A DNA stretch of 64,000 nt from the NCBI GenBank assembly GCA_965222075.1, contig OZ244937.1:4896001-4960000 (forward strand), in the 5' to 3' direction. This DNA comes from Candidatus Latescibacterota bacterium. Its GTDB lineage: Bacteria; Latescibacterota; UBA2968; GCA-2709665. The translations under genes and the position numbers were made by a program. The notes under the pieces are model-generated. The model saw only the letters and a list, made by a program, of their open reading frames with translations. It was not told where the DNA came from and made no database searches. Numbering within the stretch: the stretch's first letter is position 1; every line of letters starts with the position of its first letter. This document shows, in pieces, positions 5,644-24,642 of the stretch.

Positions 5644-5738
5644 AGAAAGCCTCCGAGGATAAGGAGGGTGGGTGTTGACCTGGGATTGTCTCACATCGCT
5701 TGGCCTGACCAACGAATCTGCTCATGGGCTGATGCCAC

Positions 5739-5766
5739 AGTATAGCTGTCATGCGCTCACAGTCAA
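5739..5766 (-). promoter_or_regulatory. Sigma70-type promoter for the minus-strand DUF6785 gene (TTGACT-16-TATACT)
   Basis: Near-consensus -35/-10 in a divergent intergenic region. Confidence 0.5.
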
Positions 5767-5809: not shown

Positions 5810-5838
5810 TTGATCCGGGTGAAGCAATGTATTAACAT
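5810..5838 (+). promoter_or_regulatory. Sigma70-type promoter (TTGATC-17-TAACAT) upstream of the RNA motif and DUF2341 gene
   Basis: -35/-10-like hexamers at 17-nt spacing in an AT-rich stretch. Confidence 0.4.
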
Positions 5839-5865
5839 TCAGGCCTTAGCATAGCAGATAAACGA

Positions 5866-5947
5866 CCGCCGGAGACCAACTTCCTGGTAGAGGTAGGGCC
5901 GGCGGCCTGCAGGGTGATGCGAGGCGGCTCTACAGTCTTCTCAGATG
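5866..5947 (+). ncRNA. Candidate structured 5'-UTR RNA motif, copy 1
   Basis: About 68 of 83 aligned positions identical to 21504-21586; stems ACCA/TGGT, GTAGGGCC/GGCTCTAC and CCGCCGG/CCGGCGG. Confidence 0.6.
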
Positions 5948-6004
5948 TCCGATAGAGAAGGCTGTCCGGATGACGATGCCACATTTTTGAAAGGGGGTTC
6001 CTGT

Positions 6005-8083
6005 ATGGGAACGTCTGAGACCTATCGCAGGAAAATAGCCGTTGATCACACGAAGGTCTCAGATGAGGATCTGACCGACTTTCCACTGCTCATTGTCTTA
6101 GAGGACAGCGCGTTGAAGGGTGTGGCTTACGGCGGCGCCCAGCAGAAGGGTGAGGATATCCACTTTATCGGGGCCGACGGCAGTCGGCTGGACGGCGAGA
6201 TCGAGCGTTACGATGCCGCTACAGGCTCTTTGAGGGCGTGGGTGAGGATTCCGAGGCTTTCGCATACTGCGGATACGGAGATTTTCCTCTGTTACGGTCA
6301 GGGGAGCAGTGCTGGTGAGGGGTCGGTTTGGGGCTCGGGCTACCGGCTGGTCCGGCATTCGAATACCGCGCCGGGGGGGCATGAGATCGTTCTCCACGCC
6401 GAGGATTTGAACCTCAGGGATGCGATTACGGTGGAGGCCTGGTTTCACAGTGAAGAGGGGAGGTCAGACGCGTTTCAGGCGCTGGTGTCGAAGTGGTCGC
6501 TGCGTTCTGAGATGGATGCGTTTGAGACTTACGATGCTGAAAATACGGATGGCCTGGACACCAGGGGATTCTTCGGGGCGGTGTGCGACGGGCGGTATAT
6601 CTATTTTTCGCCTCAGTCCAACAGCAGCGGGCGCCACGGGGAGGCGCTGAGGTACGATTCTTATGGCGCATTTACGGATCCGGCGAGTTGGGTGGGGTAT
6701 TCTGCGGGAAGAACGGGGGAGATGAATACCAGAGGCTATTACGGGGCCGTCTACGACGGGCGGTACGTTTACTATATTCCGCGCAGGGACAATGACGGTT
6801 TTCACAACCGGGTGCTGCGGCACGATACGCGAGGAGACTTCAGAAGCCCGGAAAGCTGGTCCGCATTCGATGTAGGACATCAGATCTCCTATCAGAGCGG
6901 CGCGTTCGACGGGCGCTATGTGTACTGGGTTCCGGGGTTTGATGATTACGACCACGGCAACAGCGGCAGGGTGATGCGCTACGATACACAGGGCGCGTTT
7001 GACAATGCCCAGAGCTATGTCCTGTACGATGCGGGAAACACCTCCGGGCTGGGTTCGAAATGCTATGACGGGGCCTGCTTCGACGGGCGATACGTGTATT
7101 TTGCCCCGCTGGACGGCAATGAGAACAAGGGGATTGCGCTCCGGCTTGATACGGAAAGCGATTTCTCCTCGCCGGAGAGCTGGGCGGCTTTCGACGCGAA
7201 GGGGTCGGGGTTAGGCGTGTGTGTGGGCGCGATTTTCGACGGGCAGTATATCTACTATGTGCCTTATGCACACAGCGTGGTGGTTCGTTATGATCCCCAG
7301 GGAGATTTTCAAGACGTGGGAAGCTGGGAAGCGTACGATGCTGCGGATACGTCCGGTCTGGATACAACCGGATACGACGGCGCTGCGTTCGACGGACGCT
7401 ACGTCTATTTTATTCCCTTCCGGTACGGAAAGCAGAAGTTCACAACACCCCATGCCTGCCTGCTGCGTTACGATACGGAGGCGGGTTTCACAGATCCGGC
7501 AGGCTGGGACGCCATGGATGCAGGGGCGCACACGTCCAATCCGGGGGGGTTTAACGGGGGGACGTTTGATGGGCGCTACGTTTATTTTGCTCCCTGGCGG
7601 TTGGGCACCGATGAAAACGGCGGCATTATCAGCCACGGACAGGTGCTGAGGTACGATACCACAGATTCGGATGCTTCGTTTATCCTTAAATACGCGGAGT
7701 GCGGACATAACGGAGGGCTGTGCGCTGCCCTGCCGGGGCCGACGTTTTCGGTGAATACGTCCGAAGGGGTGCGCAATGTGCGGGCAAATCGCTCGCCCGG
7801 TCCGGGCTGGCACCACGTGGCGGGGGTTTACGACGGCGCCCGGCTTACTCTCTACGTAGACGGTGTCCCGGTGAACGAAGCGGAGGGAACGGGTTCCATC
7901 CAGGCCGGGCAGGCAGATGTTGGCATCGGCCGGATTGCGGGCGGGGGGGCGCAGTTCAAAGGGAGGGTATCCGAGGCCCGGATTTCGGATACGGCCAGGT
8001 CCGGGGCGTGGATTCAGACGACGTACCGGAATCTGAAGGCGCCTCATACGTTTGTCAGGGTTGGAGAGGAAGAACAGGAATAG
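6005..8083 (+). CDS. DUF2341 + LamG-like jellyroll protein with seven inserted (G/A)xFDGRYxYF repeats
   Basis: N-terminal DUF2341-type RRKIAVDHTKV…FPLL…EIERYD…AWVRIP; split LamG (ITVEAW … WHHVAGVYDG…LYVDG…EARIS); 7 repeats between the halves. Start set at MGTSE after RBS AAGGGGG. Confidence 0.7.
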   Translation: MGTSETYRRKIAVDHTKVSDEDLTDFPLLIVLEDSALKGVAYGGAQQKGEDIHFIGADGSRLDGEIERYDAATGSLRAWVRIPRLSHTADTEIFLCYGQGSSAGEGSVWGSGYRLVRHSNTAPGGHEIVLHAEDLNLRDAITVEAWFHSEEGRSDAFQALVSKWSLRSEMDAFETYDAENTDGLDTRGFFGAVCDGRYIYFSPQSNSSGRHGEALRYDSYGAFTDPASWVGYSAGRTGEMNTRGYYGAVYDGRYVYYIPRRDNDGFHNRVLRHDTRGDFRSPESWSAFDVGHQISYQSGAFDGRYVYWVPGFDDYDHGNSGRVMRYDTQGAFDNAQSYVLYDAGNTSGLGSKCYDGACFDGRYVYFAPLDGNENKGIALRLDTESDFSSPESWAAFDAKGSGLGVCVGAIFDGQYIYYVPYAHSVVVRYDPQGDFQDVGSWEAYDAADTSGLDTTGYDGAAFDGRYVYFIPFRYGKQKFTTPHACLLRYDTEAGFTDPAGWDAMDAGAHTSNPGGFNGGTFDGRYVYFAPWRLGTDENGGIISHGQVLRYDTTDSDASFILKYAECGHNGGLCAALPGPTFSVNTSEGVRNVRANRSPGPGWHHVAGVYDGARLTLYVDGVPVNEAEGTGSIQAGQADVGIGRIAGGGAQFKGRVSEARISDTARSGAWIQTTYRNLKAPHTFVRVGEEEQE

Positions 8084-8207
8084 GAGAGGCCGTATGCACA
8101 GTGAAAAGCCCTTACGCGTCCGGAACCGAAAACAGATGTTTATCGATGACAGCGGTTTCTTGAGCGGTTTGGAGTTTTGTGATACAGATTGAGGTTAGAA
8201 CAGGCCT

Positions 8208-10148
8208 ATGACACGGCGCGCATTTATTATCGGACTTATCATATCCGCACTCACCACCCTCTGGCCGACCTATTCCAGCCTGATCGTCGGCTCTTCTCGG
8301 GCCGATTTTGCGCATCTGTCGGATGCGCTCCTCATCCCCTTTATCTGTCTGCTGGGGATTAACCTGATGCTGAGCCGGCGGAGGGACGGGCTGTCTCCGT
8401 CCGAACTTCTGACCATCTGCTGCATGGGGATGATCGCCGGGATGATGCAGGGGGAATGGCTCTCGGGCTATCTCTTAGGTGTGATTACGGCTCCCACCTA
8501 TTTTGCCACGCCTGAAAATCGATGGGCCGAAGTTATTATTCCCCATATGCCCGACTGGAGCATTGTGGCGGACAGGCCGGCCAGCATCGGATTTTACGAG
8601 AGCCTGCCGAAGGGGGCGAACATTCCGTGGGCGCCCTGGATCGCTCCGTTCCTGTGGTGGGGAGGCTTTATGGCCGCCGTGCTCCTGGCCGGCTTCTGTT
8701 CGATGATCCTTCTCCGGAAGCAGTGGATGGAGAACGAGCGGCTGGCCTTTCCGATTGCGACGGCCGTGCTGGAGCTGACCGGCGTTTCCGGTTCGGAGGG
8801 GACGCTTTCGAACCTGGTCCGGTCCCGGCTGTTCCGGATTGGCTTCTGGGCTGTGCTGCTTCTGTTTTTCTGGACGATCGCTACCTGGTTTATGCCGACG
8901 ATTCCCCTGCTTGAGTTTCCGATGACTTCGCTGTCGGCCAAGCGAATCCTGCTGGGGAAGGGGTTTCCCCCGTTCATGTTCTCGGTCCATCCGATGACGA
9001 TTGCGTTCAGCTATTTCACCAAGTCGGAGGTGCTGCTGAGCATCTGGTTCTTCCACTTGCTGGCCATCCTGCAGGTGGGGATTTTCAGCCGGATCGGCTT
9101 CGACATCGGAGGCTCGGACCCCTGGTGTTCGTTCGATCCGGCGATCGGATGGCAGAGTTTTGGGGGGATGATCGTGTTCGTGGGCTGGGGGCTGTGGACC
9201 GCCCGGGCGCATTTGAAGGAGGTCTTCCGGAAGGCATTTACCAGAAGGGGAGAGATCGACGATTCCGAGGAGCTGCTTTCCTACCGCACGGCGGTCTATC
9301 TGCTGCTCGCATCTGTGATGTATCTGATTTTCTTTCTGCGCCGGGCCGGAATGGACTGGGGGCCGCTTCTCGCCTTCTGGTTCGGGACGTTTATCCTCTA
9401 TATGGGGCTTGCGCGGATTATCGTGGAGAGCGGGCTGGTCTACCTGCGGGGGCCGATCACCGCGCAGGCGTTTACCTGGCACCTTTTCGGGATTGCCGGA
9501 TTGGGACCGCCCAGTGCGGTGGCCCTGGGGCTGACGTACACTTTTTTCTGTGATGCCAAGACGTTTGGCGTCACCGCGCTTGCCCACATTCCCCGATTTG
9601 GCGTTGCGATGAATCCGAGGCGCCGGCGGCTCCTGGTGCCGGCCGTTCTTGCAGGCGGGCTGGTGGGTGCGGTGACCGTTATCGGATATATCCTCCACCA
9701 GGGATACCACGTGCTGGGGAGTTACAATTTCGGTGTGGTCAGTTTCAACGGATCCAGCGACGGCGCAGTGGGGATCTGGTCGCTTACCACCAGCCGCATT
9801 CTGGAGGGGACGTTCGGAACGGACTGGAACCGGCTGAGCTTCTTAGGGATCGGCGCACTGGTTACCTGTCTGCTATTTTATTTCAGGTATCGGTTTCCCA
9901 CCTTTCCGATCCATCCGATCGGGTTTACGATTTCCGCTTCGGGCGTTCTGAGAAGCAGCGTGGCTTCGATTTTCCTGGTGTGGGTTACCAAGATCCTGCT
10001 GCTGAAGCTGGGAGGCTTAGACCTCTACCGCCGGACGGCTGTGCTTTTTCTGGGGATGGTGTTGGGGTATCTGACGGGGGTCGGGCTGGGGATTATCGTG
10101 GATACCATCTGGTTTAACGGGAATGGGCATAAGCTCAACGATTGGTAG
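8208..10148 (+). CDS. DUF6785/DUF6784-type polytopic membrane protein
   Basis: PTYFATPENRW, RKQWMENERLAFP, ELLSYRTA, RYRFPTFPIHPIGF motifs; paralogue of 3616-5643. Confidence 0.75.
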   Translation: MTRRAFIIGLIISALTTLWPTYSSLIVGSSRADFAHLSDALLIPFICLLGINLMLSRRRDGLSPSELLTICCMGMIAGMMQGEWLSGYLLGVITAPTYFATPENRWAEVIIPHMPDWSIVADRPASIGFYESLPKGANIPWAPWIAPFLWWGGFMAAVLLAGFCSMILLRKQWMENERLAFPIATAVLELTGVSGSEGTLSNLVRSRLFRIGFWAVLLLFFWTIATWFMPTIPLLEFPMTSLSAKRILLGKGFPPFMFSVHPMTIAFSYFTKSEVLLSIWFFHLLAILQVGIFSRIGFDIGGSDPWCSFDPAIGWQSFGGMIVFVGWGLWTARAHLKEVFRKAFTRRGEIDDSEELLSYRTAVYLLLASVMYLIFFLRRAGMDWGPLLAFWFGTFILYMGLARIIVESGLVYLRGPITAQAFTWHLFGIAGLGPPSAVALGLTYTFFCDAKTFGVTALAHIPRFGVAMNPRRRRLLVPAVLAGGLVGAVTVIGYILHQGYHVLGSYNFGVVSFNGSSDGAVGIWSLTTSRILEGTFGTDWNRLSFLGIGALVTCLLFYFRYRFPTFPIHPIGFTISASGVLRSSVASIFLVWVTKILLLKLGGLDLYRRTAVLFLGMVLGYLTGVGLGIIVDTIWFNGNGHKLNDW

Positions 10149-10244
10149 ACATGGACAGACAGCGAACGGTCGAGGGCAGCAATGGATGGCCAGGATATGG
10201 GGCTGGAGAATGAAACCAGCCCCAGGCTATTTGAAGCGTTTTCT

Positions 10245-11963
10245 ATGAAAATCGGTGGTGTCACGTTCATTCTTTTTCTGCTCCTGGCCATTCTGTCAGG
10301 CTGCTCACCTGATGCGCCCCCGGGTGTTGAGAAGGAAAAGATCGGCGAGGCGGGCGTTGCCGCCGGTCTGGGAACGCCCACCAAAGGCGGCACGTACGTT
10401 CTGGCCTACGGGGCTCCGGCCAACGCGTGGACGCTTGCGCCGATCTGGGATGGCTTCGATTTTCAACTCCTGCTCTACCCGTTTATCTACAATGCGCTGG
10501 CCGAGATGGGCGAAGACCTGCTGGCGTTCAGGCCGGGTCTGGCCGAACGCTGGGAGATCTCCGAAGACGGCCTGGAGGCCACCTTTCACCTGCGCAGGGA
10601 CGTGAAATGGCAGGACGGTCAGCCCTTTACGGCCGAGGACGTGGTGTTCTCAGTGAGGGCGTGGTTCTTAGTTGAGGATGCGTTTATCAACGATCCTCTG
10701 CTGGCGCTCCTGAAGGGCGCGCCGAAGTATCGCGAGGGCAAGGCTGAGGAACTGCCGGGGGTTGCGGTGGTGAGCCGGTACACGGTCCGGTTCTCCTTCG
10801 CACAGTCCAATCCGCTGTTTTTGTACGAGCTGAACCGGCGGCCGATCATGCCGAAGCACCTGCTGGAGGGAAAGATCCGGCGGGGGATGACCTTAGCCGA
10901 TGTGGGCGAGCTCGCGTTCGCCAAAAGGCCGGTGGGCACAGGACCCTTCAGGGTTGCGGCTTTTAAACCGGACGAGTATGTGGAACTCGAAAGGAATCCG
11001 GGTTATTTCCGGGGCGGACCCTATCTGGACAGGATTGTTATCCGTCTGGTTTCGACAGAGACGGTCATCGCGACGGGGCTGGAAACGGGTGAGATCCATT
11101 CGGCAGTGATCTGGAACAAGGAGCACTACCCGCGCCTGTTCTCGCTGGATCAGATCCGGGTCTGGGAAGATCCGGCAGCCACCGGCACTTTCAGTTTGAT
11201 TCCCAACCTGCGCTCCGAACGGAAAGGCCATCCGCTGCACGATGCGCGGTTCCGCAAGGCGATTCTGTATGCGATTCCCCGGAAGAAGATCTGCGATCAC
11301 CTGAGGATGGTCAGCCACCCGGCGCCGAATCAGGCGTATTCTCCCCGGTTTTTAGAGGGCCTTTCGTTGACGGATTACAGGTATAATCCGGAGAAGGCCA
11401 GGGAACTGCTGGCGGAGATGGGTTACGATCCAAAGACGGCGCCGGAGCTTATCTTAGCGCATCTGATTTTCGATAAGAGTCCGGAGCAACCGGCCATGCA
11501 GCAGGCCTTAGCTGAGGTGGGTATTAAGGTGAAACTGCTGGCGCTGGAGCCTCCGGCGGTGGTCAAGATGGTGGCGAATGCCGAGGGATGGGACCTGTTT
11601 CAAAGGTACCTGTCCCAGCACCCTGACCCGGGGTGGATGATCGGCGATCTCATCAAGTGCCAGGGGCCGCCGTGGGAGGTGTGCGGAATGGGGGCGATGT
11701 TCACCTGGAAGCCCACGCGTCGATACGTTGAAATCGAGCAGCTGCAGAGGGCAGAGCTGGATGCAGAGAGGCGGAAGGCGCTGCTGCAGGAGGGGATTCT
11801 GATTCTGGATCGGGAGATGCCCACGATTCCGCTGTGGACCGAGCCGAATGTCTACTTCATCAGCAAACGGGCGCACGGGAAGCACAACGGGGTGTACAAA
11901 TACGGCGCCGAGGTACACGTCAACATCGGGGCGGAGACGTGGTGGCTGGAACCGGAGGGCTAA
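10245..11963 (+). CDS. ABC transporter substrate-binding lipoprotein, family 5 (Opp/Dpp)
   Basis: Lipobox LSGC; PGLAERWEISEDG…FHLRRDVKWQDGQPFTAEDVVFS; PVGTGPF; YNPEKARELL. Confidence 0.9.
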   Translation: MKIGGVTFILFLLLAILSGCSPDAPPGVEKEKIGEAGVAAGLGTPTKGGTYVLAYGAPANAWTLAPIWDGFDFQLLLYPFIYNALAEMGEDLLAFRPGLAERWEISEDGLEATFHLRRDVKWQDGQPFTAEDVVFSVRAWFLVEDAFINDPLLALLKGAPKYREGKAEELPGVAVVSRYTVRFSFAQSNPLFLYELNRRPIMPKHLLEGKIRRGMTLADVGELAFAKRPVGTGPFRVAAFKPDEYVELERNPGYFRGGPYLDRIVIRLVSTETVIATGLETGEIHSAVIWNKEHYPRLFSLDQIRVWEDPAATGTFSLIPNLRSERKGHPLHDARFRKAILYAIPRKKICDHLRMVSHPAPNQAYSPRFLEGLSLTDYRYNPEKARELLAEMGYDPKTAPELILAHLIFDKSPEQPAMQQALAEVGIKVKLLALEPPAVVKMVANAEGWDLFQRYLSQHPDPGWMIGDLIKCQGPPWEVCGMGAMFTWKPTRRYVEIEQLQRAELDAERRKALLQEGILILDREMPTIPLWTEPNVYFISKRAHGKHNGVYKYGAEVHVNIGAETWWLEPEG

Positions 11964-11977
11964 GGGTGAGATTCAGG

Positions 11978-13678
11978 ATGAAGATTAGCGCGGTGGTATG
12001 GACGCTTTCTCTGTTCTTAATCGCGCTCTCGGGTTGTGCATCAGAACCGTCCCGGGAGGAGCGGGCTGGCGTTGTCGACCGCCCGAAGATGCCCGTTAAA
12101 GGCGGCACGTACGTGATGGCCTACCACGGGCCGCGCCACGCCTGGACGCTTTCGCCCTTCTGGGACGGGTTCGGGCATCAGATTGTGATCAACCAGTTCC
12201 ACTACAATACGCTGGCCGAGCTGGATGAGGATATGCAGACGTTTGCGCCGGGTCTGGCCGAACGCTGGGAGGTTTCCAACGACAGGAGAGAGGTGACCTT
12301 TCACCTGCGCAGGGACGTGAAATGGCAGGACGGTCAGCCCTTTACGGCCGAGGACGTGGTGTTCACGGTGCGGGCGTGGTTCTTGGTTACAGACGCCTAT
12401 GTCGATGAGCCGATTCTGACGTTGCTGAAGGGCGCGAGGGCGTATTTCGAGGGTGCGACGGAAAAGCTGCCGGCGGTTGCGGCGCTGGACCGGCATACGG
12501 TCCGGTTTACTTTTGCACAGCCCAGCCCGCTGTTTATGGACGAGCTGAACCGGCGGCCGATGATGCCCAAACACCTGCTGGAGGGCAAGGTCCGGCGGGG
12601 GATGACCTTAGCGGATGCAGGTGCGTTGGATTTTGCTAAAAAGCCGGTGGGAACCGGTCCTTTCAAGGTGGTCGATTACAAGGCGGACGAGTATATCCTT
12701 TACGAGAAGAATCCGCACTATTTCCGGGGAGAACCCTATCTGGATAAACTTATCGTGCGGCTGGTGTCGTCGGAAACGCCGATTGCCACCGGTTTGGAGA
12801 CGGGGGAGATTCACGCGGCGGTGATGTGGAACAAGGAGCACTTTCCACGCCTGTTTTCGCTGGATCACCTCACGGCGTGGGAGGATTCGATCGCGTTTGG
12901 TTCGTTCAGTCTGATGCCCAACATGCGCCCCGAGCGCAAAGACCATCCGCTGCACGATGTGCGGTTCCGGAAGGCGATGCTGTACGCGATTCCCCGGAAG
13001 AAGATTGCGGAGAACCTGCGGGTGGTAAGCCGTGGCGTGCCCAACCAGGTCTATTCACCCCGGTTTTTGGAAGGACTGCCGCTGACGGATTACAGGTACA
13101 ATCCGGAAAAGGCCAGGGAACTGCTGGCGGAGATGGGCTACGACCCGGAGGGGGCGCCGGAGCTTATCTTGGCGCACCTGATTTTCGACAAGAGTCCGGA
13201 GCAGCCGGCGATGCAGCAGGCCTTAGCTGAGGTGGGCATCAAGGTGAAGCTCCTGGCGGTTGAGACCGCAGGGGCGATCAGCCTGGTGGCGAACGCCGAG
13301 GGGTGGGACCTGTTTCAAAAGTACTCGCCGCAGTATCCGGATGCGGGATGGATGGTCAGCGATATGCTGAGGTGCTCCGGTCCGCCGTGGGAGCCGTGCG
13401 GGTGGGGAGCCATGCACACGTGGAAGCCGCCACCACGTTATGCGGAGATCGAAAAATTACAGCGGCAGGAGCTGGATCCGGAGAGGCGCAAGGCGCTGCT
13501 GCAGGAGGCGATTTTGATCCTGGATGAGGAGGTACCGGCGCTTCCGCTTTGGACGGAACCGAACGTCTATTTTATCAACAAACGGGTGCACGGGATGCAC
13601 AACGGGGTGTACAAATACGGGGGCCGCGTTCAGATTTACGTTGGGGCGGAGACATGGTGGCTGGAGCCGGAAGGTTGA
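11978..13678 (+). CDS. ABC transporter substrate-binding lipoprotein, family 5, tandem paralogue
   Basis: Lipobox LSGC; same SBP_bac_5 motifs; highly similar to the preceding gene. Confidence 0.9.
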   Translation: MKISAVVWTLSLFLIALSGCASEPSREERAGVVDRPKMPVKGGTYVMAYHGPRHAWTLSPFWDGFGHQIVINQFHYNTLAELDEDMQTFAPGLAERWEVSNDRREVTFHLRRDVKWQDGQPFTAEDVVFTVRAWFLVTDAYVDEPILTLLKGARAYFEGATEKLPAVAALDRHTVRFTFAQPSPLFMDELNRRPMMPKHLLEGKVRRGMTLADAGALDFAKKPVGTGPFKVVDYKADEYILYEKNPHYFRGEPYLDKLIVRLVSSETPIATGLETGEIHAAVMWNKEHFPRLFSLDHLTAWEDSIAFGSFSLMPNMRPERKDHPLHDVRFRKAMLYAIPRKKIAENLRVVSRGVPNQVYSPRFLEGLPLTDYRYNPEKARELLAEMGYDPEGAPELILAHLIFDKSPEQPAMQQALAEVGIKVKLLAVETAGAISLVANAEGWDLFQKYSPQYPDAGWMVSDMLRCSGPPWEPCGWGAMHTWKPPPRYAEIEKLQRQELDPERRKALLQEAILILDEEVPALPLWTEPNVYFINKRVHGMHNGVYKYGGRVQIYVGAETWWLEPEG

Positions 13679-13715
13679 GTGGGAACTGCAAATTGGTTTT
13701 GGCGACCCCCATCCC

Positions 13716-13740
13716 GGGGTACGGCATGCCATGCCCTTAC
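13716..13740. repeat. Degenerate REP-like palindrome (GGGGTACGGCATGCCATGCCCTTAC) between convergent genes
   Basis: Imperfect inverted repeat centred on GGCATGCC, overlapping the PhyH stop codon. Confidence 0.45.
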
Positions 13741-14585
13741 ATATCTTCCACCCAGTGGCGGTAGAGGGGCTTTACATCGTCGGGCAGGGACTCGTAGACA
13801 TCCCTTTTTACGGGCGTGGATTCGTAGTTTTTCTCTCCTGTTTCAACCACCATGCGGGTGTGCTCCGGGGCGCCGATCATGGTGGGATTCAGGTTCAGCC
13901 ACCAGGGCGCATAGCGGACGATGAGGGCTACGCGCGGCCTGTCACTGCGGTTGGGCGCGACCGCGTGCCAGAGCCGGCTGTCGTAGAGAAGCACGCTGCC
14001 TGCGCTGCCGGAGACCTGGATCTCAGCCGGATGTGGGGCATCGGCGTCAACGCCCTCCATCCCTCCTGCCGAGGGATTGTTGTTCATCCGGTGGCTGCCG
14101 GGCAGGACGAACGTGCCGCCCGTTTGGGGACTGAAGGGTGAGAGCATCCAGATGGTGGACAGGTGCATGATCGCGTCTGGGTAGGGCGCCGGGATGCGCG
14201 ACGCGTTGGTCTGATTGAAGGGCCAGTCCGCATGCCAGTAGCCGCGCTCGTTTCCGGGATGGTTGATAACACAGTCGGTGCAGGAGATCCGCACGTATGG
14301 ACCGAACACGGCCTCGGCGATGTCCAGAATTCGCCGGTCTGCCAGATAGGGGGCGAAGGTCTGAGTGTGGTTGATGACCTGATTCAGGTTTCCGACGCCT
14401 TTGACGCCTACACGGTGACCGCGAGCTCTGGTCTTTTCCAGTTTCGCCCGCGATTTTTCATCATGGGCCGCCTGCGCTGCCACCACGCTGTCCCGCAGGT
14501 TGTCCATCCTGTCTTCGGAGATGACGCCTTCGATCACGCAAAACCCGTTCATCTCCAACTGGAGCGATTTTTCACTGACAGACAT
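13737..14585 (-). CDS. Phytanoyl-CoA dioxygenase (PhyH) family Fe(II)/2-oxoglutarate oxygenase
   Basis: WHAD (HxD) motif; GGTFVLPGSH; AGSVLLYDSRLWHAVAPNRSDRPRVAL. Confidence 0.85.
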   Translation of the reverse strand: MSVSEKSLQLEMNGFCVIEGVISEDRMDNLRDSVVAAQAAHDEKSRAKLEKTRARGHRVGVKGVGNLNQVINHTQTFAPYLADRRILDIAEAVFGPYVRISCTDCVINHPGNERGYWHADWPFNQTNASRIPAPYPDAIMHLSTIWMLSPFSPQTGGTFVLPGSHRMNNNPSAGGMEGVDADAPHPAEIQVSGSAGSVLLYDSRLWHAVAPNRSDRPRVALIVRYAPWWLNLNPTMIGAPEHTRMVVETGEKNYESTPVKRDVYESLPDDVKPLYRHWVEDM

Positions 14586-14741
14586 TGTTCCCTCTGCGGT
14601 TTTCAGGCTCGTAGCGTGTTGACCGTTTCCCGTTTGATAGTCAATATATCACGGCACAACGGAGAGTCAAGCATTTAATGTGCGTCAACATTATCGGCGC
14701 GGAGACCTGGTGGATGGAGCCGCAGCTTTAGGGGGGGTGTT

Positions 14742-15713: not shown

Positions 15714-15732
15714 GTTTTTTGGGGGGAGTTGG

Positions 15733-16671
15733 ATGGAGACAGAGCCGCGCAAAGATCAGATGGCGCAAATAGATTTACACACAACGGAAGCCGAATCGGT
15801 CCGGGAGAAGGACTATTCCCTCGCGGCCTTGACGTGGCGGCGGTTTCTGCGTCACAGGATGGCGGTGGTTTCGTGCGGTTTGCTCGGGCTGGTGGTCCTG
15901 ATGGCCGTTCTGGCCGATTTCATCGCGCCCCGGGGGCCATACGCGGTGGACTACGAACAGGTTCTGGCTCCTCCCGGCGCCGAACACACTCTGGGGACGG
16001 ACCGGGTGGGGCGAGACGTGTGGGCCAGGCTGTGCGTGGGCTCCAGGGTGTCTCTGGCGGTGGGGCTGGTGGCGGTGGTGATCGCACAGTTTCTGGGCAT
16101 TGTTTTCGGTTCTCTTGCGGGCTACTACGGGCGTATGGCCGACAGTGTGATTATGCGGTTGACCGATGTGATGCTCTGCTTTCCCTGGCTGATCCTGATG
16201 CTGGTGGTTGCGGCTGCCTTTGGGCCGGGGCTTTCGCGCACGATGCTCGTGATCGGGTTGATCAGCTGGCCCAGGCTGGCCCGGATTGTGCGCGCGGAGT
16301 TTCTTTCTTTGAGGGAGCGGGATTTTGTTCTGGCTGCATCCTGCCTCGGGGCGTCCGGCGGCAGGTTGATTCTGTATCACTTTTTTCCCAATGTGGTGCC
16401 TTATATGATTGTAGAGGCGACCTTTGGCATGGCCGACGCGATTTTGAGTGAGGCCGCGTTGAGCTTTCTGGGCATGGGGGTGGCGGTTCCCACGCCCAGT
16501 TGGGGCAATATGCTCCGGGATGCCCAGTCTCTCCATGTGCTGACCAACGCCCCCTGGTTCTGGCTGCCGCCGGGCATTGCGATTTCGCTGACGGTTCTGG
16601 CCATCCAGTTTATCGGCGACGGGCTCCGGGATGCGCTGGATCCCCGGGCGCTGGTCGAGTCGAGGAGGTAA
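15733..16671 (+). CDS. Opp/Dpp-type ABC transporter permease (DppC/OppC-like)
   Basis: WRRFLRHRMA; HTLGTDRVGRDVWARL; EAALSFLGMG; PSWGNML; GDGLRDALDPR. Confidence 0.9.
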   Translation: METEPRKDQMAQIDLHTTEAESVREKDYSLAALTWRRFLRHRMAVVSCGLLGLVVLMAVLADFIAPRGPYAVDYEQVLAPPGAEHTLGTDRVGRDVWARLCVGSRVSLAVGLVAVVIAQFLGIVFGSLAGYYGRMADSVIMRLTDVMLCFPWLILMLVVAAAFGPGLSRTMLVIGLISWPRLARIVRAEFLSLRERDFVLAASCLGASGGRLILYHFFPNVVPYMIVEATFGMADAILSEAALSFLGMGVAVPTPSWGNMLRDAQSLHVLTNAPWFWLPPGIAISLTVLAIQFIGDGLRDALDPRALVESRR

Positions 16672-18647
16672 TGACACAAAGCCGCCCATCCCCATCCGCT
16701 CCACACGATGCTGCGCCGCCGAGCAGGCGTATTCTGACGGGCAGGGCGACGGCGGTGGGCCTGATGGCTGTGGTGACGGTTACGCTGGCCGGTCCTTATT
16801 CGGAATGGGTCGTCCGTTCTTCTTATATGACGACCAATTATTTTCCGCTGGGGCTGGCTTTTGTTTTTATTTTTTTGGTGGCCGCGCTCAATCCTTTGCT
16901 GAAGCTGTTCGGGCGCTGTTACGGGCTTGGGGGAGACGAGCTGGGCGTGGTCTATATGATGCTGATTGCAGCGGTGTCCGTGCCGACGTACGGGATTACG
17001 GGGTACGTGATTTCGATTGCGGCGTCGCCCTTTTATTACGCTACCACGGAGAACGGGTGGGCGGAGTATCTGCATCATGATATTCCCCACTGGGTCGTTC
17101 CGGGAGGCGGGCCCGAGGTGGCCTGGTTTTTTGAGGGGCTGCCTGCTGGAGCGTCGATTCCCTGGCGGATCTGGCTTGCGCCCCTGTTCTGGTGGGGGAC
17201 GCTAATTGCGGCCACGCTGGCGCTGTGTGTCTGCCTGGTGGCGATTTTCCGGAAGCAGTGGGTGGAGCAGGAGCGGCTGAGTTTTCCGGTGGTGCACGTG
17301 CCTCTGGCGATGATGGAGGGGGCCGAGGACGAGCGGCTTTTGCCCCGGTTTATGCGCAGTCGGCTGTTCTGGGTCGGGTTTGGGATTGCGGCTTTCAAGA
17401 TCATCTGGAATATTCCAGGCTATTTCAACAGCGGATGGCCCGGCCTGCCGCCGGTTATTTTGCGGATCCCTCAGGGACAGATTTTCCCGGGGATTTCGAC
17501 GATTCTCTCACTGCCCTTAGTAGGGGTTACCTATTTTGCGAATGTGGATGTGATTTTCAGCATCTGGGTGTTTTACCTGGTCAACCTGGCGGAGGTGACG
17601 CTGTTCAACCGGACCGGCTTCAGCATCGGCCCTCCGGAGATGCATTCCATCCGGCCTTCGGCGCTGTCCTGGCAGGCGTTTGGAGCGTTTGCGGCGATTG
17701 TGCTGGGCGGAATCTGGGTGGCCCGGGAGCACCTGCGGGAGGTGCTGCACAAGGCGTTTTTGAACGATGCTTCCGTGGACGATGGGGAAGAGATTCTGTC
17801 CTATCGGACAGCGGTTTTCGGGTGCCTGGCGTCGGTTGTTTACATTTTGTTGTGGTTGCACGCGATCGGGATTGCGCTTTCCATAGCGATGCTACTGGTG
17901 TATGCGGTCGTTACCGTTTACCTGGGGCTGACCCGGATGGTAATCGAGGGGGGGCTGATGTTCGTGCTGGGACCGCTGGTGCCCCAGGCATTTCCCATGC
18001 ATATGGTGGGTCCGGCGGCGCTGAGCGGGTCTACGATGACGGGGCTGGCGCTTTCTTACGGGTGGGTGTGCGATCCGATTATCGCTTTTTTGCCCTGCGG
18101 GGCCAATGCCGCGAAGGTGCACAGCGACCGACGGTTTCCCAGGGGGACCTACCTGCGGGCGGTTGCGCTGGCGCTGGGGGTGAGTCTGGCGCTTTCTTTC
18201 TGGTTTTCGCTGAAGCTGGGGTACGGGTTCGGGAGCTACAACTTCGGGGATTTTGTATTCCGGCGGGGAGGGCAGGTGCCCTTCGATACGGTGATCAGCA
18301 AGATGAAGGCGGCGGAGGGGTTCACGTTCAACCGGTTTGCGTTTCTGGGGTTGGGCGCGCTGGCCACGTTCGGGCTGACGTATCTGCGGCACCGGTTTGC
18401 GTGGTGGCGGCTGCACCCGATCGGGTTTGCGGTGGCGCTGACGTCGCCGGTGCGGTGGACGGTGCTGTCGTTTTTTGTGGTGTGGGCCGTGAAGGTGCTG
18501 ATCGACCGGCTGGGGGGATTGATTCTGTACAATCGGGCCAGGCCGTTTTTCATCGGGTTGGTTGTGGGGCATTTTGCGGCCGCAGGGATTTCTTTTGTGG
18601 TGGATGTGATCTGGTTCCAGGGCCAGGGACACATTCTTTATTTTTAG
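16671..18647 (+). CDS. DUF6785/DUF6784-type polytopic membrane protein, translationally coupled to the permease
   Basis: TAATG stop/start overlap with RBS GAGGAGG; PFYYATTENGW, RKQWVEQERLSFP, EILSYRTA, RHRFAWWRLHPIGF. Confidence 0.75.
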   Translation: MTQSRPSPSAPHDAAPPSRRILTGRATAVGLMAVVTVTLAGPYSEWVVRSSYMTTNYFPLGLAFVFIFLVAALNPLLKLFGRCYGLGGDELGVVYMMLIAAVSVPTYGITGYVISIAASPFYYATTENGWAEYLHHDIPHWVVPGGGPEVAWFFEGLPAGASIPWRIWLAPLFWWGTLIAATLALCVCLVAIFRKQWVEQERLSFPVVHVPLAMMEGAEDERLLPRFMRSRLFWVGFGIAAFKIIWNIPGYFNSGWPGLPPVILRIPQGQIFPGISTILSLPLVGVTYFANVDVIFSIWVFYLVNLAEVTLFNRTGFSIGPPEMHSIRPSALSWQAFGAFAAIVLGGIWVAREHLREVLHKAFLNDASVDDGEEILSYRTAVFGCLASVVYILLWLHAIGIALSIAMLLVYAVVTVYLGLTRMVIEGGLMFVLGPLVPQAFPMHMVGPAALSGSTMTGLALSYGWVCDPIIAFLPCGANAAKVHSDRRFPRGTYLRAVALALGVSLALSFWFSLKLGYGFGSYNFGDFVFRRGGQVPFDTVISKMKAAEGFTFNRFAFLGLGALATFGLTYLRHRFAWWRLHPIGFAVALTSPVRWTVLSFFVVWAVKVLIDRLGGLILYNRARPFFIGLVVGHFAAAGISFVVDVIWFQGQGHILYF

Positions 18648-18735
18648 GCTCAGAATACAGGTTTTGATTGCCCAGGTCTGCTGGATGGCCTATCTTGGAA
18701 ATGATCGGACAGGTTGTCTTTTTTAGAGGACTGCC

Positions 18736-20520
18736 ATGCAAAGGACTGACAAACAGGAAGCCAGGCTCCGGGAGATAGACCGCCGGTACCGGGCAATCGT
18801 ACGGATCGTTTCGGCGCTGAATACGGACCGTCCGATTGAGGATGTGGTGCAGGAGATAGGGAAAGTACTGCAAGCGCTGATTCCCTGCGACCGCTTCAGC
18901 CTGGGGTTGGTCTCCTGGAACCGCTGGTATTTTCTGGAGGACGGCCGTCTCACTTCACAGAACTTCTCCTTTCCCCTTGTTTCGGACAACTCCGCCAGCG
19001 AATGGGTGATCCACAACCGCCGGCCCCTGCTTCGTCGGGATATCTCGAAGGAACACCGGTTCAAGCACGATGTGATCAGGATGGAGCAGGGGGACCGTTC
19101 GGATCTGATCGTGCCGCTGGTTGTGGACGGCGAGGTGATGGGCACCTTCAATTTCACCAGCCGGGTGTCGAAACGCTACGACGAGGGGTGTTTAGAGGGC
19201 GCTCAGTCGGTGGCCGATGCGGTCGCCGTGGCCGTCAAGCAGTTTCAGATCCGGCTGGAGACGGAGGCCATCCGGGAGATTTCCGATGCGGTGTTGAGGC
19301 CGCTGGAACTGGACGAAATCCTGAAGATGGTCCTGACGCATATCCAGTCTCAGGGTTACGACCGGGTGAGGCTATACCTGTACGACCAGGCGCGGCATGC
19401 GATGGTAGGGGCTCTGCTGGTGGGGATGGAATACGAGCCTGCGTCTATTGTGTACCCTTTGAAAAACGATCCGTATTCGAAACAGACACTGGCTTCCGAT
19501 CGCCCCCGGATCTATCGGGCCGGGACGCCGGAATATGAGGAGGTGGTCCGTAGAAGGAGGGAGGTAGGTGAATTCCTCTATTCGAATCCTGATATTCTGG
19601 TGTGGTGCGAAATGCCCTTGAAGGTTGTCGAAGAGGGTCAGGAGGTTATTGTCGGAAAGATCGCTCTGGACAATAGCCTCAGCAGGCGCCCCCTGGCGCA
19701 GGAACGTCTGGATCGGTTGATGGTGTATGCCTCCCAGGCGGCCATTGCCATCCGGCACGCGCAATTGTACCGGCAGATGGCCGAGCAGGTGGAGAGCCGT
19801 ACGGCCGAGTACAAGCAGGCGGAGGAACGGCTTTTGGAGTATCAGGCGCAGCTCCGGTCTTTGGCGTCCGAATTGACATTGATCGAAGAGCGGGAACGGC
19901 GTCGCCTTGCAACGGATTTGCACGACCGGATCGGACAGACCCTGGCCGTGTCCAAGATCAAATTGGGCGCGCTGGGGACGTCGGCTGCCTCCACCGATTT
20001 TGCCGGACCTCTGGACGAGGTCCGCGAGCTTATCGACCAGACGATTCAGGATACGCGGTCGTTGACTTTTGAGCTGAGCCTGCCGGTGCTTTACGAACTG
20101 GGGTTTAAGGCCGCAATGGAGTGGCTTGCCGAGCAGGTCCAGGAACAGCACGGCGTTCGGGTTGAACTGGAGAGCGAGGGGCAGGTCCGGCTGTCGGACG
20201 AGGGCCTCCGGGTGCTTCTCTTCCGGGCGGTGCAGGAGCTGCTGGTCAATGTTGTAAAGCACGCTCAGGCGCATACCGCAAAGGTTTCCGTTCGGGAAGA
20301 TGGGGACAGCATACGAATCGAGGTTGAAGATGACGGCATTGGATTTGAGCCCTCCAAAGCAGGCAGAAACGGTGGATTCGGCTTTTTCAGCGTCCGGGAG
20401 CGATTGCGTTTTCTGGGAGGCGATTTTGACGTTGAATCCGAGCCCGGCCGCGGGACCCGGGCCGTGCTGGTGGCGCCGCTGAAGGGCAGTGGGGCGTCCC
20501 CGGAGGGTGGCGTGAGGTGA
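18736..20520 (+). CDS. Soluble sensor histidine kinase with two GAF domains (HisKA_3/NarX-like)
   Basis: Two GAF-like segments, no transmembrane helix; ERERRRLATDLHDRIGQTL H-box; QELLVNVVKHAQA; EDDGIGF; GFGFFSVRER. Confidence 0.9.
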   Translation: MQRTDKQEARLREIDRRYRAIVRIVSALNTDRPIEDVVQEIGKVLQALIPCDRFSLGLVSWNRWYFLEDGRLTSQNFSFPLVSDNSASEWVIHNRRPLLRRDISKEHRFKHDVIRMEQGDRSDLIVPLVVDGEVMGTFNFTSRVSKRYDEGCLEGAQSVADAVAVAVKQFQIRLETEAIREISDAVLRPLELDEILKMVLTHIQSQGYDRVRLYLYDQARHAMVGALLVGMEYEPASIVYPLKNDPYSKQTLASDRPRIYRAGTPEYEEVVRRRREVGEFLYSNPDILVWCEMPLKVVEEGQEVIVGKIALDNSLSRRPLAQERLDRLMVYASQAAIAIRHAQLYRQMAEQVESRTAEYKQAEERLLEYQAQLRSLASELTLIEERERRRLATDLHDRIGQTLAVSKIKLGALGTSAASTDFAGPLDEVRELIDQTIQDTRSLTFELSLPVLYELGFKAAMEWLAEQVQEQHGVRVELESEGQVRLSDEGLRVLLFRAVQELLVNVVKHAQAHTAKVSVREDGDSIRIEVEDDGIGFEPSKAGRNGGFGFFSVRERLRFLGGDFDVESEPGRGTRAVLVAPLKGSGASPEGGVR

Positions 20521-20566
20521 GTGCCGGGACGCGCCCGGATGACCACAGGATCGCACAGATTCCGTT

Positions 20567-20632
20567 TCAGGTATTTCGAAGCCCGGAATCGGGGATTTCC
20601 CCGGTTGCGCTTTTATTTATGGGGCGTACATT
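20567..20632 (+). promoter_or_regulatory. Operator + promoter, copy 1 (TCAGGTATTTCGAAG-5-AATCGGGGATTTCCCCGGTT; TTGCGC-16-TACATT)
   Basis: Repeated with the same architecture at 21374-21438; the palindrome abuts the -35 box. Confidence 0.6.
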
Positions 20633-20685
20633 GGCAATCTCTTGGATATTTTTGGCGTGCGACGGCAGACTACAGGAGGTGCGAG

Positions 20686-21339
20686 GTGAGGATCAGGATT
20701 CTCCTGGCCGATGATCACAAGATCGTGCGGGACGGCCTTCGCGCCCTGATCGAGCAGCAGGCCGACATGGCGGTGGTGGCCGAGGCGGAGGACGGGCGAA
20801 CGGCGGTGGGGCTGGTGCAGGATCTGTCGCCGGATGTGGTTGTGATGGATATCGGCATGCCGGATTTGAACGGGATCGAGGCCACCCGCCAGATTATCGC
20901 CAAGACCTCCGGCGTGAAGGTGATCGCCCTGTCGATGCATTCCGACAGGCGGTTTGTGGCGGGTATGCTCGGCGCAGGGGCGTCGGGTTATCTGCTGAAA
21001 GACGGCGCGTTCGAGGAACTGGCCGATGCGGTTCGCCTGGTGTTTGCAGATCAGACTTACCTGAGCCCCGGGATAACCGGCGTTGTGATCGAAGATTACG
21101 TACATCACGTGTCGGCGGCCCAAGACACGGTTTTGGCCGCGCTGACAGCCAGGGAACGCGAGGTGCTTCAGCTCCTGGCGGAAGGCAGATCGACCAAGCA
21201 GATTGCTTCGGATCTGGAGGTGAGTGTGAAGACGGTTGAGACGCATCGCCAGAAGGTTATGCAAAAACTAAATTTACACAGTATTGCCGATCTAACCAAA
21301 TACGCCATTCGCGAAGGGCTGACCACCCTCGAACGCTGA
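20686..21339 (+). CDS. NarL/LuxR-family response regulator
   Basis: ILLADDH…PDVVVMDIGMP receiver; LTAREREVLQLLAEG…KTVETHR LuxR HTH; GTG start after AGGAGG. Confidence 0.92.
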   Translation: MRIRILLADDHKIVRDGLRALIEQQADMAVVAEAEDGRTAVGLVQDLSPDVVVMDIGMPDLNGIEATRQIIAKTSGVKVIALSMHSDRRFVAGMLGAGASGYLLKDGAFEELADAVRLVFADQTYLSPGITGVVIEDYVHHVSAAQDTVLAALTAREREVLQLLAEGRSTKQIASDLEVSVKTVETHRQKVMQKLNLHSIADLTKYAIREGLTTLER

Positions 21340-21373
21340 CGCGCACCGGCGAAATCGTCTCATTGACGCCGGC

Positions 21374-21438
21374 TCAGGTATTTCGAAGTCAAAAATCAGG
21401 AATTTCCTGATTGCGCTTTTTTTTTTGTGATATAGATT
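21374..21438 (+). promoter_or_regulatory. Operator + promoter, copy 2 (TCAGGTATTTCGAAG-5-AATCAGGAATTTCCTGATT; TTGCGC-16-TAGATT)
   Basis: 8-bp palindromic arms AATCAGGA/TCCTGATT; 15-mer identical to copy 1. Confidence 0.6.
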
Positions 21439-21503
21439 GAATGTGTTATCTTACGTTATGTTATCTTATGAAATATAATGATTTACTGAAAAAATTCGTA
21501 AAG

Positions 21504-21586
21504 CCGCTGGTTACCAAACTTCCTGGTAGAGGTAGGGCTAACGGCTCGCAGGGCGATGCGAGAAGGCTCTACAGTCCCCTCACATG
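21504..21586 (+). ncRNA. Candidate structured 5'-UTR RNA motif, copy 2
   Basis: Homologous to 5866-5947; stems TACCA/TGGTA, GTAGGGCT/GGCTCTAC, CTCGCA/TGCGAG, AGCCG/CGGCT. Confidence 0.6.
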
Positions 21587-21627
21587 CACAGATTTAATCA
21601 GCAGCCGATGTGAAGAAAGGAGCGGGC

Positions 21628-23757: not shown

Positions 23758-23912
23758 GGCTGTGTGAAGGGGACGTTTTGAGACACAGGAAAGGGGGGAT
23801 GCTGACTTATGGTTTAGGAGATAACGATTTTTCGCGTTCGGACAACACGCCTTCTGGTCCGGACAGATGTTTAACCTTTCTTAGGTTATTGATTGTAAGA
23901 AAGGAGGGAAGC

Positions 23913-24629: not shown

Positions 24630-24642
24630 AGGAGGATGAGAT

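Follow-up and report, generated by a model that had tools for sequence, protein, structure and literature searches.

A Previously Undescribed Structured RNA Family of Latescibacterota Upstream of DUF2341-LamG, Outer Membrane Protein-Like and TonB-Receptor-Like Genes

Introduction

In a 64,000-nucleotide stretch of a Candidatus Latescibacterota genome (GenBank assembly GCA_965222075.1, contig OZ244937.1, positions 4,896,001 to 4,960,000 of the forward strand; hereafter the window, numbered from its first letter), two genes for DUF2341-LamG proteins are each preceded by a short non-coding segment, and the likeness of the two segments raises the question of what they are, which strand they serve and what they might do for the genes beside them. 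The original prediction, made from the letters of the window alone, took them for a new cis-regulatory RNA working as a riboswitch-like translational switch. Here we report that the two segments are copies of a previously undescribed structured RNA family of Latescibacterota, about 88 nucleotides (nt) long and absent from Rfam. We first set out the evidence for the element and its fold, then the signals that flank its relatives, and finally the readings that these signals permit, among them a tentative one in which the family acts by RNA-RNA pairing and not by sensing a metabolite.

Two Copies of One Element

Copy 1 occupies positions 5863-5950 of the window and copy 2 positions 21501-21589, both on the + strand. 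A BLAST search with 5860-5950 against the whole genome, which is one contig of 5.36 Mb, returned copy 2 at 82% identity (query positions 7-88, E 5e-16) and no other match at E ≤ 0.2, in agreement with the roughly 68 matching positions in 83 on which the original prediction was built. The 22-mer that had been described as invariant, AACTTCCTGGTAGAGGTAGGGC, has just two exact occurrences in the window, both on the + strand (5878-5899 and 21517-21538); the chance expectation from shuffles is 0.00 matches at up to three mismatches. The flanks are indeed unrelated, since identity in the pairwise alignment collapses outside about 5863-5950 and 21501-21589, and the genes behind the copies are diverged as claimed: their products, both with DUF2341 and Laminin_G_3 domains, are paralogues that share 54% identity over about 700 amino acids (aa). 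With 82% nucleotide identity against 54% protein identity, the element is better conserved than the genes downstream of it.

The original prediction had matched the element to no known riboswitch class, and database searches bear this out. Rfam 15 (4227 models) gave no match in the 64-kb window at gathering thresholds. When the two segments were searched at E ≤ 10, only snoZ168, sR41 and RF_site9 were returned, all at chance level (E 3.9-8.6), and in a search of six related loci at E ≤ 1 the element was overlapped only by two sub-threshold matches, one to U6atac (22.5 bits, E 0.049) and one, on the opposite strand, to RybB (23.6 bits, E 0.47); a third match, to a c-di-GMP-I-like aptamer described below, fell outside the element. 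A full-text literature search confined to riboswitches found nothing pertinent on RNA regulation in Latescibacterota.

Relatives and Distribution

Among 61 related genomes, BLAST found close copies in G001 (one) and in G004 (three, two of them in tandem), and in a public genome collection the exact 22-mer was met in a single Candidatus Latescibacterota metagenome-assembled genome record, at the tandem-copy position of G004. Two covariance models were built, R1 from the six close copies and R2 from 16 copies. In the genome that contains the window (G000), R2 identifies four copies, namely copy 1 (81.8 bits, E 1.5e-11 against the whole genome), copy 2 (81.1 bits, E 2.1e-11) and two beyond the window, copy 3 at C1:5322613-5322696 and copy 4 at C1:4434155-4434235. 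Homologues of the predicted RNA do exist elsewhere, and they covary in two hairpins: across the class, 15 of 132 genomes match R2, and with G000 left out the positive genomes belong to families f1 (3/21), f2 (10/31) and f4 (1/3), while family f3 has none (0/76). In a phylum-wide sample 13 of 151 genomes match, and R2 had no match in the 36 genomes of families f5-f14 in that sample. The family is narrow, so far known only from three families of one Latescibacterota class.

A pattern scan of metagenomes yielded eight stretches, of which two, L071 (90.8 bits) and L068 (46.7 bits), fit the model; L068 is identical in sequence to the copy of G045. The candidate L066 (23.5 bits) was dropped as GC-rich, coding-like sequence, and the weak R1 matches L031, L032, L035, L036, L039 and L041 (22-25 bits), which lie inside long open reading frames (ORFs), were dropped before all counts. 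The counts that follow refer either to the 30 model-aligned matches or to 31 copies, which are those 30 and the metagenome copy L071; three further R2 matches in G004 (46-47, 46 and 41.5 bits) stand outside the examined set.

Structure of the Element

Four helices had been drawn for the element: helices i, ii and iii, and a 5' helix (iv) that crosses helix ii, so that the two would form either a pseudoknot or alternative folds. Covariation supports two hairpins, P1 and P3, and P1 is helix iv. In copy 1, P1 pairs 5864-5873 with 5898-5907 about an apical part at 5875-5897 that holds the invariant 22-mer, and P3 pairs 5917-5928 with 5935-5946 across a loop at 5929-5934. In copy 2, P1 pairs 21502-21510 with 21538-21546, the apical part lies at 21513-21537, and P3 pairs 21556-21567 with 21574-21585 across a loop at 21568-21573. 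Over the 30 aligned copies, the 10-bp P1 is 91.7% paired and the 12-bp P3 82.9%; changes to both partners of a pair are seen at 9 of the 10 pairs of P1 and at 8 of the 12 of P3. Taken together, 87.7% of the cells in the two stems pair, compared with 34-46% when the partners are slid, and none of 500 shuffles reached the observed covariation score. Much the same result came from a MAFFT alignment of 16 copies made without reference to structure (88.1% paired vs 36-48%). Even among the six close copies, six of nine P1 pairs are compensated.

Between the arms of P1 there is some support for an apical stem of a pyrimidine run against a purine run (CUUC/GAGG or CC/GG) that carries a hexaloop, CUGGUA or UUGGCG. 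The module accordingly has P1 topped by a conserved apical stem of pyrimidines against purines (P1b/P2), which ends in a hexaloop of the YUGG type, and a linker rich in purines (GGAGGG or GCAGGG) that leads to P3. Nearly every conserved base can be assigned to a stem or to the hexaloop, and no multi-helix junction or pocket was found in the element. The apical 22-mer is unchanged between the window copies of G000 and shows at most one change in the three copies of G004, which belongs to another genus; P1 meanwhile changes by compensation.

The remaining helices of the original prediction fared poorly. Helices i-iii are 66.5% paired across the 30 copies, compared with 64.9% in shuffles, 53 of 500 of which were equal or better; among the six close copies none of their pairs covaries, and three pairs of helix ii vary only by pair-breaking changes. 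Compared with P1+P2+P3, the alternative fold that they would form costs 9-22 kcal/mol in five of the six close copies, with copy 2 a tie, and the pseudoknot of helices ii and iv, which is likewise energetically inferior in five of six, draws no support from covariation. It had also been proposed that AACUUCCU pairs with the ribosome-binding site (RBS). Complementarity of this kind is to be expected of any pyrimidine run set against a Shine-Dalgarno sequence, and an RBS-sequestering switch through AACUUCCU is unlikely as a conserved trait because members of the family lie anywhere from about 40 to about 330 nt ahead of the start codon.

Folding energies contribute little. Copies 1 and 2, folded singly, are not more stable than their own shuffles (z +0.24 and +0.27); it is covariation, not energy, that argues for structure. 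On its + strand copy 1 folds 2.6 kcal/mol better than on the opposite strand; for copy 2 it is the opposite strand that folds better, by 5.3 kcal/mol, which leaves its strand ambiguous. The 3' strand of P3 in copy 1 also enters an alternative 10-bp hairpin on the + strand at 5933-5964 (CAGUCUUCUC/GAGAAGGCUG), present in both the centroid and the minimum-free-energy fold of 5862-6010 and, judged by eye, retained in G001 and G004_a. A leader peptide was considered, since AUG frames of 12-13 codons traverse P3 in both window copies. It was rejected because the corresponding frame in G030 is a single codon long and copies 1 and 2 differ from each other non-synonymously (by eye).

Flanking Signals on the Opposite Strand

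In most of the distant members a conserved box, TTGTCAAG, stands 27-36 nt 3' of the element, and its best interpretation is a -35 hexamer in reverse complement. In G000 it occurs 185 times, where about 96 occurrences are expected (e.g., C1:5321406, 3114199, 4042694), and by eye most of those between genes read on the other strand as a sigma-70 -35 box, cTTGACAa, with TAnnnT 17 nt farther along, a pattern that suggests an extended -35 consensus in this organism. Roles for the box as a sense promoter, an operator or a partner of the apical loop were entertained and set aside, there being no consistent sense -10 and both box and loop being too invariant for a test of pairing.

By a strict rule (at least 9 of 12 consensus positions, with A2 and T6), an opposite-strand promoter accompanies 9 of the 31 copies, and in eight of these the -10 ends 4-14 nt from the end of P3. 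By a looser one, 18 of the 30 aligned copies have an opposite-strand -35 that matches TTGACA at five or six of its six positions and a -10 that ends at a distance of 21 nt or less; the sense-strand reading of the same flanks, taken as a control, gave two matches and shuffles a mean of 1.5. A separate promoter scan reported TTGACT-17-TATATT on the - strand beside copy 3 of G000 (L043) and TTGACA-17-TACTAT beside copy 1 of G048 (L057). At the other end of the element, the 11 nt before P1 hold eight or nine A in 15 of 31 copies and six or seven in eight more (at least six in 23 of 31). This A-run, present in most copies that have an opposite-strand promoter, reads on the opposite strand as P1 followed by a U-run, which is to say as a terminator, and one was called on the - strand at the P1 end in L029. 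Read in this direction the parts follow one another as promoter, 5' hairpin (P3), pyrimidine-rich linker (CCCUCC-like) and terminator hairpin (P1), with a predicted transcript of about 100 nt. Most of the 18 copies have no sense promoter at the strict threshold, and at copy 3 of G000 a lacI-like gene ends 30 nt before P1. The gene upstream is LacI-type both there and at G054.

The composition of the stems follows the flanking promoters. Strand classes were set by flanking promoter alone, which gave 18 copies with an opposite-strand promoter and 12 others. In the 18, the modelled strand has 22 G.U and 46 A.C pairs, and 14 of these copies fold more stably on the opposite strand; in the other 12 the modelled strand has 25 G.U and 14 A.C pairs, and nine of them fold more stably on that strand. 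In genus g6 both kinds of signal are present, with TTGACA-17-TATCTT on the sense strand 16-87 nt upstream of the element in 7/7 genomes and the opposite-strand box as well. A small RNA of g6 would be cis-antisense to the operon leader, because the promoter of the operon lies upstream of the element.

Sense-Strand and Tandem Copies

The window copies belong to the sense class: only sense promoter candidates accompany them, the + strand gives the better fold for copy 1 and its orthologues, and copy 2 is ambiguous in this respect. The site assigned to them by the original prediction, between a promoter and the RBS, holds for both as to position, and the promoters themselves are only weak consensus matches. 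The candidate before copy 1, TTGATC-17-TAACAT at 5810-5838 (+ strand), matches a sigma-70-like consensus at 8 of 12 positions, under the stricter scan threshold, and its block is conserved at the orthologous loci of G001 and G004. The candidate before copy 2, CTTACG-18-TATAAT at 21450-21479 (+ strand), matches at 9 of 12 in a relaxed scan. The stricter scan reported neither of them, the second being missed because its first hexamer matches too few positions. On the opposite strand, consensus scans found no promoter 3' of copy 2 even at 8/12, and near copy 1 only a weak TTCCCA-17-AAAAAT at 6011-5983, 32 nt away, whose -35 matches at 4/6. Start codons follow only 40-55 nt past the two copies, with the RBS in between. 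A sense 5' untranslated position, which the original prediction expected to be consistent, is shared by about 12 of the 30 aligned copies, those of the window included, while 18 of the 30 have an opposite-strand -35.

One assembly detail concerns copy 2 directly. In sequencing run X1, a minority contig (depth 10.6 vs 41.9) has 16 other letters in place of window positions 21439-21525, a stretch that takes in the promoter candidate and reaches 25 nt into copy 2. The shorter side of this contig is only 30 letters long, and another strain or a repeat is possible.

Tandem copies stand 160-166 nt apart in G004, G048 and G049. In genus g10 copy 2 has a sense promoter, TTGACA-18-TATATT (11/12), 54 nt ahead of it and is followed at about 80 nt by copy 3, whose P3, together with U8, was called a terminator. 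The number of T in the 12 nt after P3 is eight in G048_1, G048_3 and G049_3 and seven in G049_1 and G054; at the two window copies it is 1 and 4. The terminator scan found no sense intrinsic terminator at the window copies, and the family as a whole does not qualify as an intrinsic-terminator attenuator. After the last tandem copy of g10 (L057 about 2700-2760, L030 about 2780-2850) a second conserved hairpin (AGCCUCCCAAUCG ... CGAUUGGAAGGCU) with a U-rich run can be seen by eye before the gene for an outer membrane protein (OMP), possibly a second leader terminator.

The G004 orthologue of the second DUF2341-LamG gene has a more elaborate leader in which a c-di-GMP-I-GGC-like aptamer, a hairpin with a U-run (by eye) and two tandem copies of the element (b1 and b2) follow one another on the same strand. 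The aptamer (L044 1815-1957, - strand, upstream of b1/b2) scores 42 bits against a gathering threshold of 59 (E 1e-8) and has a long insertion in one loop. The leader with copy 2 is without a stretch of about 50 nt that carries TTGTCAAG boxes in this orthologue.

Genes Associated With the Element

The gene neighbourhood was taken as the next gene on the modelled strand at each of the 31 copies. That gene encodes a DUF2341 protein at six copies (five genes), an OMP beta-barrel-like protein at nine (Pfam scores under the curated cut-off), a TonB-receptor-like protein with CarboxypepD_reg and Plug domains at five, and a small HTH_23/HTH_32 protein at two. Three copies have other neighbours, namely MMPL, an unknown ORF followed by an extracytoplasmic function sigma factor, and an acyl-CoA dehydrogenase, and six are unassigned (contig ends, a following copy, or left unexamined). 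At the one locus looked at in this respect, G030, the gene after the OMP-like gene carries a CarboxypepD_reg domain. Receptors with CarboxypepD_reg and Plug domains may be called SusC-like on the strength of that domain pair. The small protein of about 145-157 aa (HTH_23/HTH_29/HTH_32) is encoded at L057 1680-2153 and L030 1731-2165 (G048 and G049), between copy 1 and the tandem copies 2-3, and may be a regulator or what is left of a transposase N-terminus.

In the window, the first DUF2341-LamG gene and its RBS span 5990-8083 on the + strand (RBS AAAGGGGG at 5990-5997, ATG at 6005, frame open from 6005; Pfam DUF2341 and Laminin_G_3), and the second, with RBS AGGAG at 21618-21622 and TTG at 21628, spans 21618-23757 on the same strand (same Pfam domains). 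Behind copy 2 the operon continues on the + strand at 23676-27876 with an OMP beta-barrel-like gene, whose OMP_b-brl match reaches 22.9 bits under a curated cut-off of 28.7, and a TonB-receptor-like gene with CarboxypepD_reg and Plug domains (Pfam); these are the kinds of genes that follow the element elsewhere.

Several other features of the window lie near or between these loci. Divergent from the first locus, a sigma-70-like promoter on the - strand at 5739-5766 (TTGACT-16-TATACT, 10/12) points toward a DUF6785/DUF6784 gene at 3616-5712; the window has three paralogues of this membrane-protein pair. Directly before copy 2, 18736-21339 encodes a GAF-HisKA_3 histidine kinase and a LuxR/GerE-type response regulator. 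Between the two loci, 13796-14459 has about twice the depth of its flanks and many joints and loose ends in all four runs, and looks repeated or strain-variable; the ORFs at 13524-14141 and 14163-14678 have no Pfam match.

Interpretation

The reading that we favour, and to which we give slightly less than an even chance, is that the family is deployed in two ways, as opposite-strand small RNA genes of about 100 nt and as sense copies embedded in leaders, and that it controls uptake operons by RNA-RNA pairing. Most members would be stand-alone genes opposite the neighbouring operon, each transcribed from a TTGACA-17-TAnnnT promoter that ends 4-14 nt from the end of P3; P1 and the U-run would terminate the transcript, and the linker, which on that strand reads CCCUCC, would resemble an anti-Shine-Dalgarno sequence. 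A minority, among them the two window copies and the tandem ones in g10 and G004, would lie on the sense strand inside 5' leaders. Control of the OMP, CarboxypepD_reg-Plug and DUF2341-LamG operons would thereby fall after transcription start, with the small RNAs pairing with leaders or RBS regions. In g6 this would happen through cis-antisense overlap; at other loci the pairing might be in trans, by way of the apical loop or of the pyrimidine-rich linker. The window copies would then represent the leader form of the module, be it target, decoy or attenuator, and not a metabolite sensor. The family, its two hairpins, the genes beside it and the flanking signals of each strand are observed; transcription of either strand, pairing between copies and the direction of regulation we infer.

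A number of observations weigh against this reading. Its main weakness is that the window copies have no obvious cognate partner, because no opposite-strand copy in G000 shares their 22-mer, copies 3 and 4 differing from copies 1 and 2 at precisely this apical sequence. A trans partner for the 22-mer elsewhere in G000 was sought and rejected: the only complementary stretches are 15-20-mers (L006, L008, L010) inside long ORFs, with E 1.5-2.8. Extended duplexes are predicted when copies 1 and 2 are set against the reverse complements of copies 3 and 4 (z -2.7 to -5.3); they are uninformative, because any homologues would pair in this way. The contrasts between strand classes (Fisher p 0.002 for pair types and 0.008 for the more stable strand) overstate the case because the seven g6 copies are close kin, and with g6 collapsed to one the energy contrast would become about 4:8 vs 9:3. 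Of the 18 opposite-strand promoters five have poor -10 hexamers, and four copies with such a promoter (G048_1, G049_1, G000_c3 and G043_b) nevertheless fold better on the modelled strand. Contigs from RNA libraries (two runs) consist of short, unstranded, low-depth pieces in both operons, and no listed piece covers either element. Lastly, a binding site for a protein or ligand could also account for how strongly the apical part is conserved within clades.

A bolder version of the two-strand arrangement, in which opposite-strand copies are small RNAs that recognise sense leaders, with single or tandem copies, by the conserved apical loop and P3 and thereby switch leader hairpins of the kind of P3, a terminator in g10, seems doubtful to us. 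If true, it would make the family a chromosomal, multi-locus counterpart of plasmid countertranscript attenuation with outer-membrane uptake operons under its control, in G004 placed in series with a c-di-GMP riboswitch.

The alternative closest to the original prediction is a riboswitch-like sense element that responds to a ligand or protein, with hairpin 1 and the linker as sensor and P3 or downstream sequence as expression platform. It would accommodate the covarying stems with their conserved apical part and linker, the tandem copies of G004, G048 and G049, the P3 of the last g10 copy, which is a textbook terminator behind a strong sense promoter, the alternative 10-bp partner downstream of the P3 3' strand in copy 1, and the consistent association with certain genes, all without a match to a known Rfam class. 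We nonetheless consider it unlikely. The riboswitch-like inference is weakened most by family context, in that 18 of 30 copies have an opposite-strand promoter, most of these with a terminator, and pair types there favour the opposite strand; an independent opposite-strand gene makes no sense for an aptamer. Several of these copies lack an upstream sense promoter, the spacing to the start codon (about 40 to about 330 nt) is loose, a U-run follows P3 only in g10, no junction or pocket is evident, and the pseudoknot is unsupported. The earlier observation is confirmed and its interpretation partly supported: a structured new RNA and helix iv were right, the fold needs correction, and a riboswitch is less likely than a small RNA and antisense-leader system.

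Three further alternatives bear on the window copies or on the nature of the element itself. Copies 1 and 2 might be non-switching leader hairpins, either relics of small RNA genes or generic structures for messenger RNA stabilisation or processing, as the absence from copy 2 of the roughly 50-nt stretch that holds the opposite-strand -35 boxes in the G004 orthologue would suggest; the P3 of the copy-1 type, moreover, has three or four mismatches in 12 pairs and is absent from the minimum-free-energy fold, and energies are no better than those of shuffles. This we judge improbable, given 82% identity of the element against 54% of the proteins between paralogous loci, and given an apical 22-mer kept with at most one change while P1 compensates, which indicates purifying selection and not decay. 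Additional transcription of copies 1 and 2 from their opposite strand, yielding small RNAs or part of a longer antisense transcript from promoters missed by consensus scans, is a still slimmer prospect. The better opposite-strand fold of copy 2 (by 5.3 kcal/mol, with four A.C against three G.U pairs on the modelled strand), the six A in the 11 nt before P1 of both copies, and the weak - strand TTCCCA-17-AAAAAT near copy 1 speak in its favour, but no site of at least 8/12 lies 3' of copy 2, the -35 near copy 1 matches at only 4/6, the folds of copy 1 and its orthologues favour the + strand, and an RBS and start codon within 40-55 nt leave no room for the usual box. It is very improbable that the element acts as DNA, whether as an inverted-repeat operator or as a dispersed repeat. 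P1 is a perfect inverted repeat of conserved sequence in many copies (GCCGTTAGC ... GCTAACGGC), and G.U and A.C pairs are nearly equal overall (46 vs 56); set against this, two separate hairpins covary, the arms lie 27 nt apart, the copies number only four to nine per genome at syntenic positions and in fixed orientation to the neighbouring operon, and the asymmetry of G.U and A.C tracks the strand of the flanking promoter in a way explicable only by RNA.

Latescibacterota, which are uncultured, gain a covariation-supported family tied to SusC-like receptor, OMP and DUF2341-LamG operons. One module on either strand is unusual and predicts pairing between small RNAs and leaders. There is also a warning for annotation, as a leader that looks like a riboswitch may be the mirror image of a small RNA gene.

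Comparison With Known Systems

Riboswitches in general, and the c-di-GMP-I (GEMM-I) class in particular, resemble the element in their place in the 5' leader, in stems that covary around conserved unpaired bases, and in tandem arrangement, and in G004 an aptamer of this class stands in series with it. The element differs in having no Rfam riboswitch match and no junction or pocket, and in that most copies appear as opposite-strand genes.

Countertranscript control in plasmids includes CopA/CopT, RNAI/RNAII and the attenuation systems of pT181 and pIP501, and makes use of the YUNR U-turn loop motif. Here, too, the RNA has two hairpins, whose loops would kiss the complementary loops of a leader with the same fold, its apical loops begin with YUGG (CUGGUA, UUGGCG) and so fit YUNR, and the P3 of g10 doubles as a terminator. 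In contrast to the plasmid systems, the operons concerned are chromosomal uptake operons and the sense copies of G000 have no exactly complementary partner; kissing or attenuation would apply only by analogy.

The cis-antisense RNAs of the DonS type in Bacteroides are 78-128 nt long and divergent to susC homologues (Cao et al. 2016, as summarised in PMC7366714). The likeness would lie in RNAs of about 80-130 nt, several per genome, encoded divergent or antisense just upstream of an operon with a susC-like TonB receptor. An opposite-strand promoter-like site beside OMP or CarboxypepD_reg-Plug operons accompanies 18 of 30 copies of the Latescibacterota family but not the window copies. The phylum is another one, and the likeness is an analogy of arrangement and probable logic. 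Moreover, the Latescibacterota module also occurs in sense orientation within leaders, sometimes in tandem, and overlaps the far 5' leader, not the coding start of susC.

FopS of B. thetaiotaomicron comprises 14 paralogous small RNAs that repress SusC-like messenger RNAs at their 5' ends or at susC translation, and the family is said there to be deposited in Rfam (PMC11697453). The consensus structure of FopS is a single-stranded 5' seed and a terminator, whereas the present element has two hairpins and matches no Rfam model. The likeness would be to FopS as a paralogous family whose members each have their own housekeeping promoter and are directed at the 5' ends of SusC-like messenger RNAs; as an analogue of FopS, the CCCUCC-like linker between 5' hairpin and terminator on the opposite strand of the Latescibacterota element would suit pairing with a GGAGG RBS. 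The comparison suggests that control of glycan or nutrient uptake at the level of RNA, as known in gut Bacteroides, may exist in a distant member of the same superphylum by way of an unrelated RNA.

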